This document shows, one piece after another, positions 4,874 through 31,708 of a DNA stretch of 64,000 bases (positions are counted from its first letter, which is position 1; each line of letters opens with the position of its first letter). Position numbers and translations under genes: made by a program. This stretch comes from an uncultured cyanobacterium (GTDB lineage Bacteria > Cyanobacteriota > Cyanobacteriia > Cyanobacteriales > Nostocaceae). The notes beneath the pieces are model-generated. The model made no database searches, had not been told where the DNA came from, and saw only the letters and a list, made by a program, of their open reading frames with translations. The stretch covers positions 320,001 to 384,000 of the forward strand of contig OY970166.1 in NCBI GenBank assembly GCA_963706595.1, read 5' to 3'.

Positions 4874-7800
4874 ATGCCTCTTACCTTCACTTTTACTCTC
4901 AGCCAAAACCAAACCTTTGAGCTGCGCTGTGACTACGGTACGCGCCGTCTCGATACTAATGAATTAGGTAGTCTGATTAATCTGTGTGAAGAAAGATACT
5001 ATTCTCAAGAAGAAGATGACACCGCACAGTTACGGAGTATCGGCTGTCAGTTGTATTCGTGGTTGGATGGTAAAGAAGGATGGTTACGCCAAGCTTTAAA
5101 TGCAGAAAATCACGGCACAATATATTTAGATTTAATTCAAACCAGTGAAGCTCAAGGTTTAAACCCCCAAACTCAAAAAGTGGCGTTGGGTTTAGCACAT
5201 TTGCCTTGGGAATTATTACACAACGGCACAGTATTTTTACATAAAGTTTTACCAGTCAGAGCAGTCCAGCAACAAAATAACCCAGTTATTTCCCAGCAAA
5301 ATCGCCCGTTGCGGCTGTTGTTTATGGCGACTTCACCAGAACACCCAGGAATTGCATCTCTACAATTTGAGCAGGAAGAAGCGAATATTCTCAAAGCCAC
5401 ACAAGAGCAGCCTTTGGCGTTGATTGTGGAGGAAAGCGGCTCGGTGGCTGAGTTGGGCAATTTAGTTCAGTCCTATCCCCCAGATTATTTTGATGTGTTC
5501 CATTTGACTGGGCATGGTGTTATTTATACAGTTAGGCAGTTTGGGGGCTATCTGCCGCCAGGTCGGAAAATTCACGATTATACTCCCTGCTTCATTACCG
5601 AGGATGAAGTGGGAGGTGTACAATTTACTACCGTTGATGATTTAGCGAAAGCCTTTCGGGGACGCTTTCCCCGTGTGGTGTTTCTCTCTGGCTGTCACAC
5701 TGGGCAACTTGCTAATAAAGGCACAGTTCCCTCAATGGCGCAGGCTTTGGTGAAAGCGGGTGTGGGTGTGGTTTTGGGCTGGGCGCGTCCGGTGTTTGAC
5801 AGGACAGGTATTATTGCTGCACAAGCGCTGTATCAAGCTTTGGCTACGGGGGCGACGGTGGAAGATGCGGTAAAAACGGCACAGCAGGAAATGATTACTC
5901 AGGAATGTTCCGACTGGCATTTATTGCGGATTTATCGGGATACTCGCCAGATTCAGGAGTTAGTCACACCACAGAATACGATAAAACGCGAAAGGCTGAG
6001 ATTTACACCACCTGAAAGTGAATTTCTCGATGAAAACAATATTGTCAAAGTTGCCAGTCAGGGGGAATTTTTCGGACGCAGAAGAGCTTTGCAGCGTGGG
6101 ATGTTGGCTTTGCGGGCAACTAGCGACCATATCGGCGTGTTTTTGGCGGGAATGGGCGGTTTGGGTAAAAGTTCTCTGGCGGCGCGGTTATGTACACGGG
6201 TGCAGTCGCAACGCCCCAATTTTCAGCGCGTGGTGTTGATTGGGCCTGTAAACGAGGTGGGTTTAATTAACAAGCTGGCGAGTAAGTATGAACGGTTTGC
6301 AGGTGTGCCGGCTTTGTTAAATCAGCCGGGAATTTCTTTTAAAGGGCGATTGCAAAACTTTTTTGAGGCCATAGAAGAGACACAGGATCAGCCTTTGTTG
6401 TTGGTTTTGGATGATTTTGAGCAAAATATCCCCCAAGGGAATATAGCAGATGGTAGTCTGCGGATGACTGCGGAAGCTTACGAGGTTTTAGCAGCTTTGT
6501 GTGCAGCTTTGGCTGAGAATCAAGCGGAAAGTCGGTTAATTGTTACCTGTCGCCATCTGAAGGAAGATACTCTTCCACCCCATCGCTTACATTTGGAAAG
6601 TTTGAATAAAATGGGTGAGGCGGATATTAATAAAATATTTTGGCAATTGGATCAGGATGTGAGGTTGCAAGTGAAAAAGCAGCGCCTCCTGACAATTGCT
6701 GATGGAAATCCGCGCTTGTTGAAGTGGCTGGTGGAAATTGTGCAGTTACCAGATTTGGCTACAGATGAGTTGCTGACAAAGTTGGAGGGTGTGCAACTCA
6801 AGTTTCGGGAAGATATTTTGGCGGAAGTTTTGTTAAATGCTTTGGAGGATGAGGAAAAAAAGTTTCTGGCTAGGTTGAGTGTGTTTCGTCTCCCGGTGAC
6901 GGAGGAAATAATTAAGAACCTCTCCCCAACCCCTCTCCTACGAGGAGAGGGGCTTCAAACTTCCACTTTAGGGGTTGGGGGGTTAGGTTTCCTGCCCAAA
7001 TTAATTAGTCTCAGTTTAGTGGAGTCAGCGACAACTTACGCCCAGCAAATTGCCGAATATCGGGTGACGACGATTTTAGAACCGTTGTTGGAATCGATAT
7101 TAACTGAGGAAGAATGGCAAACTACGCGCCAAGCTGCTACACGTAAAATTTATCAAACTTGGTGGGAAGCAACGGATAAGCGCTACACAGAAGAACAAGG
7201 GCGAGAAATTGTCAGATTGGCGGTGTTGGGACAGGAAAAAGAAATCGCCGTCACTTTGGGCGATAGCATTGCAATTCATTGGCTGGATAACAGCCGATAT
7301 GTGGAAGCACGGGAAATATGCCGAGAAATTCTGCAATTGGGTGAAGATTATCGAATTTTGGGGACTATCGCTAGTGCGGAACATACTTTGGGTTTTGTTA
7401 AGGAAGCGTTGACGCATTATGAACAAGCTTTAAAACTTTGCCCACTAGACGATTTAATAAAAAAAGCCGCCACGCTACACAATATGGCTCGATTAAAAGC
7501 TCAACAGGGAGATATCGCTGCTGCAAGCGTTCTGTTCCAGCAATCTTTAGATATCAATGAAAGCATCAACAATTTTAGAGATAGAGCTGCGACGCTACAA
7601 GAAATAGCTCATTTAAAAGCCCAACAGGAAGATTTACCAGATGCGATCGCACTTTTACGGCAATCTTTGGATATCTATGAAAGCATCAACTATGTCAAAG
7701 GCATAGCTACCACGCTACATAACATGGCTTATTTAAAAGACCAACAGGGGGATATATCTGGTGCAAGCGTTCTGTTCCAGCAATCTTTAGATATCTATGA

Positions 7801-8839
7801 AAGCATCAACGATGTCCGAGGTAAAGCCGCCACGCTACACCAAATGGCTCGATTACAAGCTCAACAGGGGGATATATCTGGTGCAAGCGTTCTGTTCCAG
7901 CAAACTTTGGATATTGAAGACAGCATCAACAATGTCCGAGGTAAAGCCGCCACCCTACACGAAATGGCTGTATTAAAAGCCCAACAGGGAGACATAGCCG
8001 GAGCGATCGCACTTTTCCAGCAAACTTTGGATATTGAAGACAGCATCAACAATGTCCGAGGTAAAGCCGCCACCCTACACGAAATGGCTGGATTAAAAGC
8101 CCAACAGGGAGACATAGCCGGAGCGATCGCACTTTTCCAGCAAACTTTGGATATTGAAGACAGCATCAACAATGTCCGAGGTAAAGCCACCACCCTACAC
8201 GCAATGGGGGGATTAAAAGCGCAACAGGGAGACATAGCCGGGGCGATCGCACTTTTCCAGCAATCTTTGGATATTGAAGACAGCATCAACGATGTCGGAG
8301 GTAAAGCCGTCACATTGGCAAATTTGGCTTATTGTGAAGGAGAAAGGGGAAATAAAACCAAGCAGTTAGAATTCTACCTGCTAGCAGCCCAACTACTCGG
8401 ACAAGTCCGCGCTTACGTATATTTACAGCAAGTTTTAAAGAATTTAGGCGTTACTGATGAAACGAAGGGAATCATCTACCTTGCTCAAGCTGTATGGCTG
8501 TGTATGCGAATTGAAGTACCTTTAATTAATATGATAAATACCCTTGAAGCTATGTACAATTGCATACCCCAAGGGGATGAAATGGAAGCTTTACTGGGTA
8601 CAGTTGCTGTGTATTTCTGCCAAATTCGCGGCACAGGACATCCCCAGTTAGAGGATTTACAACAGCGCAGTTTGAATATTTTATCCGGTTCTGCTGCTGC
8701 ACAGGGGATTGAAAACCAGAAAGCATCTGCTACTTGGTTTGTGCAGCAACGGTTGAATGACCCTGAATATTTTATACCGCAACTCAAGCAACGGTTAGAG
8801 GCGATTGTTGGGGATGAGTGGCTATTTGAGCGATTTTAA
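4874..8839 (+). CDS. CHAT (caspase-like protease) - STAND/NB-ARC NTPase - TPR protein
   Basis: LAHLPWELL, FHLTGHG (His) and FLSGCHT (Cys) CHAT motifs; Walker A GMGGLGKS, Walker B LLLVLDDFE, GNPRLL; 40-aa TPR-like repeats. Confidence 0.9.
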   Translation: MPLTFTFTLSQNQTFELRCDYGTRRLDTNELGSLINLCEERYYSQEEDDTAQLRSIGCQLYSWLDGKEGWLRQALNAENHGTIYLDLIQTSEAQGLNPQTQKVALGLAHLPWELLHNGTVFLHKVLPVRAVQQQNNPVISQQNRPLRLLFMATSPEHPGIASLQFEQEEANILKATQEQPLALIVEESGSVAELGNLVQSYPPDYFDVFHLTGHGVIYTVRQFGGYLPPGRKIHDYTPCFITEDEVGGVQFTTVDDLAKAFRGRFPRVVFLSGCHTGQLANKGTVPSMAQALVKAGVGVVLGWARPVFDRTGIIAAQALYQALATGATVEDAVKTAQQEMITQECSDWHLLRIYRDTRQIQELVTPQNTIKRERLRFTPPESEFLDENNIVKVASQGEFFGRRRALQRGMLALRATSDHIGVFLAGMGGLGKSSLAARLCTRVQSQRPNFQRVVLIGPVNEVGLINKLASKYERFAGVPALLNQPGISFKGRLQNFFEAIEETQDQPLLLVLDDFEQNIPQGNIADGSLRMTAEAYEVLAALCAALAENQAESRLIVTCRHLKEDTLPPHRLHLESLNKMGEADINKIFWQLDQDVRLQVKKQRLLTIADGNPRLLKWLVEIVQLPDLATDELLTKLEGVQLKFREDILAEVLLNALEDEEKKFLARLSVFRLPVTEEIIKNLSPTPLLRGEGLQTSTLGVGGLGFLPKLISLSLVESATTYAQQIAEYRVTTILEPLLESILTEEEWQTTRQAATRKIYQTWWEATDKRYTEEQGREIVRLAVLGQEKEIAVTLGDSIAIHWLDNSRYVEAREICREILQLGEDYRILGTIASAEHTLGFVKEALTHYEQALKLCPLDDLIKKAATLHNMARLKAQQGDIAAASVLFQQSLDINESINNFRDRAATLQEIAHLKAQQEDLPDAIALLRQSLDIYESINYVKGIATTLHNMAYLKDQQGDISGASVLFQQSLDIYESINDVRGKAATLHQMARLQAQQGDISGASVLFQQTLDIEDSINNVRGKAATLHEMAVLKAQQGDIAGAIALFQQTLDIEDSINNVRGKAATLHEMAGLKAQQGDIAGAIALFQQTLDIEDSINNVRGKATTLHAMGGLKAQQGDIAGAIALFQQSLDIEDSINDVGGKAVTLANLAYCEGERGNKTKQLEFYLLAAQLLGQVRAYVYLQQVLKNLGVTDETKGIIYLAQAVWLCMRIEVPLINMINTLEAMYNCIPQGDEMEALLGTVAVYFCQIRGTGHPQLEDLQQRSLNILSGSAAAQGIENQKASATWFVQQRLNDPEYFIPQLKQRLEAIVGDEWLFERF

Positions 8840-15802: not shown

Positions 15803-15809
15803 GAAAATT

Positions 15810-16110
15810 CTCAACCTCACCCCAACCCTCTCCTTGGTAAGGAGAGGGAGCAGGAATATTTTTTGCGTGTTCATCTGTGGTTTTAAATATCTTGCAACAG
15901 ATGAATTGGGAAAAGTCTTAACCTCACCCCAACCCTCTCCTTAGTAAGGAGAGGGAGCAGGAATATTTTTTTGTGAGTTCATCTGTGGTTGTAAATATTT
16001 TGCAACAGATGAATTGGGAAAAGTCTCAACCTCACCCCAACCCTCTCCTTAGTAAGGAGAGGGAGCAGGAATATTTTTTTGTGAGTTCATCTGTGGTTGT
16101 AAATATTTTG
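15810..16110 (+). repeat. About 107-bp tandem repeat (about 2.8 copies) with CCCTCTCCTT-N3-AAGGAGAGGG hairpin
   Basis: AACCTCACCCC recurs at 15813, 15920 and 16028. Confidence 0.92.
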
Positions 16111-30016: not shown

Positions 30017-30078
30017 TATGATCAGTGGTCGGTTGTCAGTTGTGAATTACTCTTGATGACTGACTGCTAACTATTGAC

Positions 30079-30285
30079 CGAGAATAACGGGATACAAGCC
30101 CCGTCACTTCGACAAGCTCAGTACAAGCCTTTTAGGACGGCTTTCTGGTAAAATTGGAATATAGTCGCCATAGGGCATTGGGAGACTTTAAACGAACGTC
30201 GAGGGATGGTAAGACTATTTCGAGAGCATCGACCCAATGAAGCGTTAAGGAATCCTCTCTCCTTCAGGAAGAGGAGGTATGTCAA
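30079..30285 (+). mobile_element. Non-autonomous IS200/IS605-type mini-element, family A copy 2, with a 23-bp insert in the left hairpin
   Basis: Near-identical to 866-1045; preceded by TTGAC; ends TATGTCAA. Confidence 0.82.
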
Positions 30286-30309
30286 TATATAACTATTAAC
30301 TGATTTGCT

Positions 30310-30915: not shown

Positions 30916-31158
30916 ATGAAAGAAAAATTATTAAACTGGCTAAACCTAGTTTTAGTGGCTGATGTATTTTTAGTTTTATTTGGCTTTATCTGGCTGGCGA
31001 TCGCGGCCATTGGCGATGCTGCGGGAGTAAACTTAGGTTTAGATTTATGGCATCAACTTTGGATGCCTGTGTTTAACCCCGCAATTGGCATCCTCATGGG
31101 TGGCGCTCTTCTTAGCGGTTTAGTCAGTTGGGTTTCTCGCAAATTCCAAGCTGAGTGA
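30916..31158 (+). CDS. Small conserved membrane protein
   Basis: Two TM segments, PVFNPAIGILMGGA; stop codon lies in the adjacent mini-element end. Confidence 0.8.
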   Translation: MKEKLLNWLNLVLVADVFLVLFGFIWLAIAAIGDAAGVNLGLDLWHQLWMPVFNPAIGILMGGALLSGLVSWVSRKFQAE

Positions 31159-31471
31159 CATACTCCTACACTGATGCAAGCATACAGTGTAGGCTTCTCA
31201 GCGACTCTTCTATGAAGACATTGACTGAGCTTTGTTTTAAGTCCACGAGAAGCCCCTCCGCAGACTATGCAATTTCTTACCTTGTACCCTACAAATTTTA
31301 CTGTCCTGGATGAGATGCTGGCTTATTCGCGCTATAGGACAAACCCGGAGGTGATCTGTATTAATCAAGATGTGCCTACTTGCTTCTATGCTGTGCAACG
31401 GAGTCGCTTACCAATAATCGTAATGCTATTGGACAGAGGCTTATCAGACACCAATATGGGTGAAGTCAACC
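31155..31471 (-). ncRNA. Putative omegaRNA-like structured RNA (about 315 nt plus flank-derived guide)
   Basis: Extended -10 TGGTATAAT at 31478-31486 (minus strand); several long-range complementary segments. Confidence 0.5.
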
Positions 31472-31625
31472 AAATCGATTATACCAAATTTAAAATATTT
31501 TGCTCGTTTCCTCCGTGTCTCCCTTCCTCGCTGTCGCATTGGTCGGGAGACTGTCGTCAATTCACGCGCAATTCATCTCATCACTTCCGCTATCGTGTTA
31601 AGTGAGAGGCTTCTTGCTGTTTAAG
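31155..31625 (-). mobile_element. Non-autonomous IS200/IS605-type element, family B, 471 bp, with structured ncRNA cargo
   Basis: Right-end hairpin CCTACACTG-N11-CAGTGTAGG then AGTATGTCAC; left-end hairpin TCACTT..AAGTGA; preceded by TTAG; excision restores ...CAA GCT GAC TAA. Confidence 0.78.
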
Positions 31626-31708
31626 CTAAAAGTTTGTAGTGAGGACTTTAGTCCTCTGTTCTTCTGTATTTAAAGCCACAGCTTCAGCACATAAATATCC
31701 GCAGAACT

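Follow-up and report, generated by a model that had tools for sequence, protein, structure and literature searches.

Insertion site, ends, and copies of the element

The window analyzed is a stretch of 64,000 nucleotides from an uncultured cyanobacterium of the family Nostocaceae. It contains a mobile element without a protein gene, inserted at the end of a short ORF. The features at the insertion site are as follows.

30916..31158, plus strand: host ORF of 80 aa, without a Pfam family; its final residue is changed from D to E, and its TGA stop is supplied by the element
31155..31625, minus strand: nonautonomous IS200/IS605 element of 471 bp, without a protein gene, recognized from its copies, empty sites, and homology searches
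31501..31625, minus strand: left end with a subterminal hairpin (about 31577-31608, read from the sequence)
31626..31629, minus strand: target/TAM tetranucleotide TTAG, which reads TTTAG at all eight copies in the source genome

The element has subterminal hairpins at both ends and is inserted 3' of a short motif, without target duplication. TTAG precedes 21 of the 22 family loci that have a recognized left end. The source genome (G000) contains eight copies with 99.4 to 100% identity, and the right flank is different in each. To judge from these near-identical copies with different flanks, the element has clearly been mobile. The junctions are clean in seven of the eight copies, and copy c8 (G000:C1:839035, L036) has a 9-nt overlap. 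The left end of copy c8 lacks its first bases and starts TTTAG-TGTGACAGC. These 9 nt are identical to its own guide, a microhomology junction, and this junction may record repair instead of a clean TnpA insertion.

The site was empty in all 11 relatives examined, and the ORF ends in D-stop in each (nine FQAD-stop, one FSAD-stop, and one FQVD-stop). The element-bearing ORF now ends FQAE-stop; the insertion alters the last residue only. An earlier note on this DNA had predicted that excision restores FQAD-stop, and the empty sites bear this out. The features it had listed were confirmed as well: the TTAG target (31629-31626), the element (31625-31155), TGGTATAAT at 31486-31478, the terminal hairpin at 31165-31193, and GTCAC at the end. 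It had further called the element mobile on its own. The element has no transposase, and the genome encodes an intact Y1 TnpA at another locus, in an element whose left end is 98% identical; the gene-less element is therefore not mobile by itself.

Named relatives are filamentous cyanobacteria. The plasmids and phages searched gave end fragments or nothing, and viral scans gave one, one, and zero loci. A diverged copy (73%) without a left end is present at G000:C1:4143348-4143619 (L022). It was considered as a domesticated gene and rejected, as its site is empty in 10 of 10 congeners.

TnpB profiles and tblastn detected no TnpB or TnpA homology in the element beyond the last seven tnpB codons. 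A degenerate tnpB remnant was rejected: nothing upstream of these codons matched, and gaps break the frame. An antisense ORF of 112 aa (31267-31605) was also rejected as a gene. It has no Pfam family, and the longest antisense frame varies from 41 to 106 aa across homologues. The earlier note had supposed that longer family members encode a protein. None was found between the ends in the loci examined, which were 88 oriented loci (flanks of 1.5 to 4 kb), 34 further loci, and 46 core loci. The 88 oriented loci include one unrelated TnpB, 2.7 kb off and on the opposite strand. In one family member (L104), an insertion of 2.4 kb that carries an ORF of 571 aa separates the core from the right end.

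A shorter ORF-less IS200/IS605-type element lies at 30071-30290 on the plus strand of the window. It ends GGTATGTCAA, has a TGGTAAAAT box, and lacks the leader core described below. It has 10 other blastn matches in G000, four of them at 96 to 97%. The window also contains 120-nt tandem repeats within a gene at 7449-8313, which looks TPR-like by eye, and an intergenic tandem repeat of 108 nt at 15803-16110, with copies elsewhere.

Promoter and transcription

31478..31486, minus strand: extended -10 box TGGTATAAT, a conserved hexamer, with a predicted transcription start at about 31471

In 57 of the 58 rows with a located start, a TANNNT hexamer precedes the RNA by 6 nt (by eye), and it stands behind unrelated upstream sequences. 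A two-hexamer promoter scan of the element gave nothing and no -35 box, so the promoter call rests on the extended -10 box and its conservation.

Sixteen RNA runs contain part of the stretch. In four RNA libraries from four studies, contigs start at 31459, 31485, 31396, or 31398, reach the right end, and continue beyond GTCAC into other flanks. The contigs carry no strand or end information, have no DNA control, and differ in their four starts; they are consistent with transcription of the element and are not proof of it, so that transcription is weakly supported. Run X1 leaves the left-end half of the element without cover, and this was not counted as evidence. It contains a piece nearly identical to the L022 copy.

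Conserved structure of the RNA

The predicted RNA is 317 nt long, from about 31471 to the right end. The interior is 298 to 347 nt long among homologues and is preceded by one of at least two types of left end, or by no left end. The earlier note described an unusually long omegaRNA, and 317 nt falls inside the range of 79 to 466 nt that the accessible part of PMC10278001 gives for processed omegaRNAs.

A pattern scan retrieved 65 stretches, 55 of them homologous. The other 10 were noncyanobacterial and without blastn support, and they were discarded as chance hits. Alignment A1 contained 49 rows after near-duplicates and three rows with insertions were removed. A 72-pair structure was 93.7% paired on A1 (slid controls, 33 to 46%), with the helices chosen by hand on the alignment that was scored. 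Two-sided changes were present in 31 pairs versus 12.8 in shuffles (reached in 0 of 500), where about 20 of the 49 rows represent one ycf4 lineage. The first ~215 nt have two-sided changes in 15 of 40 pairs. The single-sequence fold was no better than shuffles (minimum free energy [MFE] z, -0.05). The region is noncoding, with 34 of 37 distinct gap runs not multiples of 3. By these comparative measures, it is a conserved, covarying, noncoding RNA structure.

The earlier note had suggested a comparison by covariance and with Rfam and HEARO. Covariation was found among the 49 homologues, but neither Rfam nor HEARO gave a match. Nothing in the window reached the Rfam gathering score (one irrelevant match at E 10), and 14 related loci gave only repeat-driven or unrelated matches, which lay off the RNA (E ≤ 1). 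HEARO/IscB omegaRNA and the Rfam IS605 motifs did not match the element RNA.

Four complementary blocks had been read from this copy. All of them exist here, but only 31302-07/31336-41 is conserved among the 49 rows (five pairs kept in 43 to 49 rows and the sixth in 29). The central pair of 31200-07/31401-08 is kept in only 8 of 49 rows, and this 8-bp block is complete only in 8 rows with the 3' end swapped for another tnpB end. Block 31221-26/31464-69 has letters on both sides in only 6 to 8 sequences at four of its six positions. Block 31255-60/31346-51 is kept in 10 to 34 of 49 rows.

The omegaRNA module and its predicted guide

31155..31265, minus strand: canonical TnpB omegaRNA module of about 110 nt, with the same elements at 27 aligned tnpB 3' ends
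31157..31254, minus strand: pseudoknot of loop 31254-31250 with 31161-31157 (AUGUC), with covariation over 85 distinct ends
31135..31154, minus strand: predicted guide, which is the donor flank (antisense to the final part of the upstream ORF); the empty site would be its target

The module contains a hairpin (31265-31241), a UUAAA linker, a GCUCA/UGAG stem, the right-end hairpin (31193-31165), and the GUCAC end. Column pair 269/304 of A1, within the module, is paired in 49 of 49 rows with six pair types. By its sequence and pairing, the 3' ~110 nt is shown to be a TnpB omegaRNA; the genome encodes two intact TnpBs of the clade to which it belongs, and both share the TTTAG target. The 3' module has 1 difference in 47 nt from the tnpB end of L196 (by reading), and such modules are evidently exchanged with tnpB elements. 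The stand-alone omegaRNA gene of the earlier note holds for this last ~110 nt, but the remaining first two thirds are an added leader.

The same note had also proposed a pseudoknot. One is present, but it pairs loop 31254-31250 with 31161-31157 and not 31221-26 with 31464-69. The loop reads GGCUU here instead of the consensus GGCAU, and there is therefore one U-U mismatch in this subfamily (9 of 85 ends); four of the five pairs are formed in this copy. The free positions are paired in 76 and 84 of 85 ends versus shuffled maxima of 75 and 77. The changes are G-C/A-U swaps, and the covariation spans tnpB and gene-less ends; within A1 alone it is not significant. An alternative pseudoknot of ACAU (31373-31371 region) with AUGU was set aside, as it is invariant and uninformative.

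For 11 guides, no second TTAG-adjacent target beyond a 9-nt seed was found in G000. The predicted guide would be just the donor flank, which points to homing over antisense regulation.

According to the accessible part of PMC10097598, a scaffold of ~116 nt suffices in the ISDra2 omegaRNA, and the 5' region is tnpB coding, disordered, and dispensable. The RNA described here resembles it in its stem 1 pseudoknotted to the 3' tail, the stems that follow, and the flank-derived guide. Unlike in that account, its 5' region is noncoding, structured, and conserved.

The leader and sister elements

31377..31471, minus strand: 5' RNA domain, helices 1 to 4, with two-sided changes in 10 of 19 pairs
31270..31376, minus strand: leader core, with two-sided changes in 5 of 21 pairs and a degenerate boxA

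The leader occupies ~215 nt upstream of the omegaRNA module and has no tnpB homology. The core contains, in order, CUUG, a 7-bp helix, GGGUU, a 6-bp helix, GUAAAA, and GUA-CAAG. The 5' RNA domain may be a second portable module. Its inner hairpin is wholly deleted in the ycf4 lineage. At L141:1481-1716, the 5' domain of the family (CUGAUAAGCCUCUG ... CGUUGCAC) stands on a different omegaRNA end, without the core.

Sister gene-less elements have the same omegaRNA module with other 5' hairpins. Between the 5' hairpin and the omegaRNA they carry a core in which 11 of 15 pairs covary. Model R3 was built from 17 sisters with the target family excluded and has a helix-GGG-helix-GUAAAA-helix topology. 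It matched 72 of 151 genomes of the order and 24 of 151 of the phylum. We read 46 of these loci. An IS200/IS605 right end, of varied types, lay within ~120 to 260 nt in 45 of them (by eye), and none had a tnpB inside the core-bearing element. On 31376-31270, R3 formed all pairs with a weak score that is not significant by itself (10.7 bits; E, 2.3; second of 10 matches). It aligned to the corresponding site of 20 of 21 family loci, again with weak scores (E, 0.03 to 7; best, 0.031). The leader core of the family is probably a distant homologue of a portable boxA-leader module.

The accessible part of PMC13753749 describes boxA as an antitermination motif of rRNA operon and CRISPR array leaders. 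The sister core likewise opens with a GAACCUUGAAAAC-type boxA, which is present at 8 rRNA and 6 CRISPR leader/spacer sites of G000. The boxA-bearing CRISPR leaders are at positions 531607, 900125, 1038247, 2284709, 3998007, and 4495600 of G000:C1. Unlike those leaders, this family has a degenerate, partly base-paired motif that does not match the host rRNA/CRISPR boxA. The median boxA matrix score was -13.9 in the 49 family rows versus 12.4 in the 17 sisters and 26.7 at the training sites. NusB is present in G000. No Rho was detected above the cutoff in G000, and anti-Rho antitermination therefore cannot be the role of the leader.

Further observations were made on the sisters. The K-A-E-N-A-G codons of tnpB have unusually conserved silent sites in 27 tnpB genes (L193-L222), and the 5' hairpin of one sister RNA type is the same 17 to 19 nt. 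In a profile search, the core of a second gene-less element was found at G000:C1:1678180-1678275, joined to an unrelated GTCAA-type right end. That element (L253, C1:1678060-1678440) sits upstream of a RecQ-like ORF, and a second copy (74%) is present at C1:5140077-5140332. Sisters L155, L163, L175, L181, and L261-L264 contain a small divergent ribbon-helix-helix-like ORF (by eye); in these, the RNA stands in the usual place of tnpB.

Candidate helper proteins in the source genome

G000 contains an intact tnpA-tnpB element at C1:4056074-4057931. It matches the left end over 131 nt at 97.7% and has the same GAGTATGTCAC end. It encodes a Y1_Tnp protein and, at C1:4056130-4057329, an OrfB_IS605/Cas12f1-like_TNB protein, the first cognate TnpB. 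Another TnpB from this clade is encoded at G000 4679666-4680859. Both cognate tnpB elements are preceded by TTTAG, both TnpBs have the RuvC D-E-D motifs (on reading), and the omegaRNA profile matches the 3' ends of both genes. The ends, target, and copy number of the gene-less element fit, on sequence grounds, peel-and-paste movement by the Y1 TnpA elsewhere in the genome. The main proposal of the earlier note is supported: an ORF-less element carries a promoter and a structured RNA with a TnpB omegaRNA at its end, and G000 encodes compatible intact TnpBs at other loci.

The TnpB clade was detected at E ≤ 1e-120 in 21 of 27 RNA-bearing genomes versus 27 of 121 genomes of the order. This co-occurrence is only suggestive, because the RNA-bearing genomes are kin and not independent. 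The other six RNA-bearing genomes had no TnpB match at this threshold, and three of these also had none at 1e-60.

The copy upstream of ycf4

In the genus of G254 (such loci are labeled Nostoc), a family copy occupies the psbD-ycf4 interval, ~30 nt upstream of the ycf4 start. By hand count among the matches listed, it is whole in at least 64 of 127 genomes and split or partial in at least 11, or about 75 of 127. The remaining ycf4 genomes among the matches listed have ycf4 alone or a 3' remnant. The resident copies (L093, L127, and L223-L252) supply ycf4 with a structured leader of 300 nt and a promoter-like TTGAGT..TAAAAT. Their "guide" is the native leader of ycf4, which is present in G000 without the element.

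Divergence was compared in a set that included the 30 best matches to G254. In 28 distinct ycf4 loci, the TCAC end survives in 8 and is decayed in 20. The left end is unrecognizable, with a length of 136 to 432 nt and a distance of 0.227. The RNA is 299 to 318 nt long, with a distance of 0.100. For comparison, four-fold ycf4 sites had a distance of 0.164, and the native upstream stretch had one of 0.048. These values amount to moderate constraint on the ycf4-resident RNA, with frequent loss.

Proposed mechanism

On balance, the evidence leans toward a parasite of two helpers that homes by way of TnpB in trans and has a leader for expression and stability. The element would be a minimal selfish IS605 derivative that borrows TnpA and TnpB. 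The promoter would produce an RNA of ~317 nt plus flank, which TnpB would load in trans to cut TTTAG plus flank. That sequence would exist only once the element has been excised, or on a sister chromosome that lacks it, and repair templated by the filled copy would then restore the element, as in the model of Meers et al. We consider this homing step, by itself, likely.

For the role of the leader in expression and protection, we are nearly evenly divided and lean slightly against it. The 5' ~215 nt would replace the translated tnpB mRNA, the normal source of omegaRNA. The leader would descend from a boxA-type leader, a recruiter of Nus factors, that the sister elements have in common with rRNA and CRISPR leaders. 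In the family described here, boxA would have decayed, while the helices were retained and a further 5' domain was gained.

Gene-less guide elements are already known. OmegaRNA-bearing, PATE-like IS200/IS605 elements of Geobacillus stearothermophilus are in print (Meers et al., bioRxiv 10.1101/2023.03.14.532601). As far as the accessible part of that paper goes, those elements are similar in having no protein gene, ends common to autonomous elements, and a proposed use of the omegaRNA in trans by the TnpB of other elements, with homing to the donor joint. Unlike them, the present element has a dedicated promoter followed by ~215 nt of conserved, covarying, non-tnpB RNA ahead of the omegaRNA. 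The stand-alone omegaRNAs known from OMEGA systems are mobilized, effector-less, and reported to be active in trans (Altae-Tran et al. 2021, via PMC10691335), and the accessible part of PMC10691335 calls their role unknown. The present loci are likewise effector-less and mobilized, with compatible effectors in the genome, as read from the sequence. That account, in its accessible part, describes neither a leader module nor an exchange of 3' modules between TnpB clades, both of which are found here. A literature search, with subscription papers and bioRxiv supplements outside its scope, found no description of the RNA or the leader. The added feature is the conserved ~215-nt leader upstream of the omegaRNA.

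Alternative explanations

The leader core might have a biochemistry of its own, as a self-processing ribozyme or a protein-binding site, with the omegaRNA as one of several grafted modules. It contains invariant unpaired GGG, GUAAAA, and GUAC between covarying helices (11 of 15 pairs), and the same core stands on at least four unrelated right-end types. It is kept in this family despite the decay of boxA, and the RNA is kept at ycf4 after decay of the TCAC end in 20 of 28 loci. We nevertheless consider this explanation unlikely. The RNA matches no Rfam family at E ≤ 10 and the sisters match none at E ≤ 1, no protein gene travels with the family, and the core was always seen beside a transposon end, save in one truncated case.

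In a plain MITE or PATE, the DNA ends alone would matter, and the interior would be a passenger from an older functional RNA. The movement of IS200/IS605 elements requires only the element ends. The pseudoknot of this subfamily has a U-U mismatch, the MFE is no better than that of shuffles, and ~52 of 127 ycf4-genus genomes among the matches listed lack most of the RNA at the site. Against this explanation, the RNA keeps its length and helices across exchanges of the left end and across insertions in the pre-promoter spacer, the -10 box stays at a constant distance, and the ycf4 RNA divergence (0.100) is below that of four-fold sites (0.164) and of the left-end remnant (0.227). This explanation is quite unlikely.

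A dead TnpB with a regulatory guide, or an antisense RNA that acts on the neighbor gene, is a variant of what the earlier note proposed, and we regard it as very unlikely. The flanks differ across all eight copies, as in any transposon, although the flank is antisense to the upstream ORF here and the fixed ycf4 copy has a constant flank. That constant ycf4 "guide" is the native leader, also found at the element-free site of G000. Unlike the case of TldR-type repressors, the cognate TnpBs look catalytically intact (on reading), and the 11 guides have no TTAG-adjacent off-site targets in G000.

An IStron-like group I intron fused to IS605 ends would give a large structured RNA between such ends at the end of a gene, but its probability is negligible, as no intron family was detected in Rfam at E ≤ 10, the RNA strand ends in C and not in the terminal G of group I introns, and the element has its own promoter and is antisense to the host ORF here.

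Implications

A broader idea can be stated, which we would sooner doubt than accept. A portable RNA domain of ~100 nt, common to cyanobacterial gene-less guide elements and with its own function, might free any TnpB guide scaffold as an independent gene, by recruiting the rRNA/CRISPR elongation machinery of the host or by processing itself. In this family, a derived form, boxA would have been lost and a second domain acquired, and one genus would have kept it as the ycf4 leader. If this is true, these elements would be a living intermediate between the omegaRNA and the stand-alone tracrRNA or leader-driven CRISPR RNA of Cas12 systems. The departure of the guide RNA from the tnpB mRNA is a step proposed for the origin of tracrRNA, and a leader common to TnpB clades makes it testable what a guide RNA needs after leaving that mRNA. 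The leader could serve as a natural cassette for expressing TnpB guides in cyanobacteria. At ycf4, the resident copy is a candidate for a transposon promoter and structured leader adopted by a photosystem I assembly gene.
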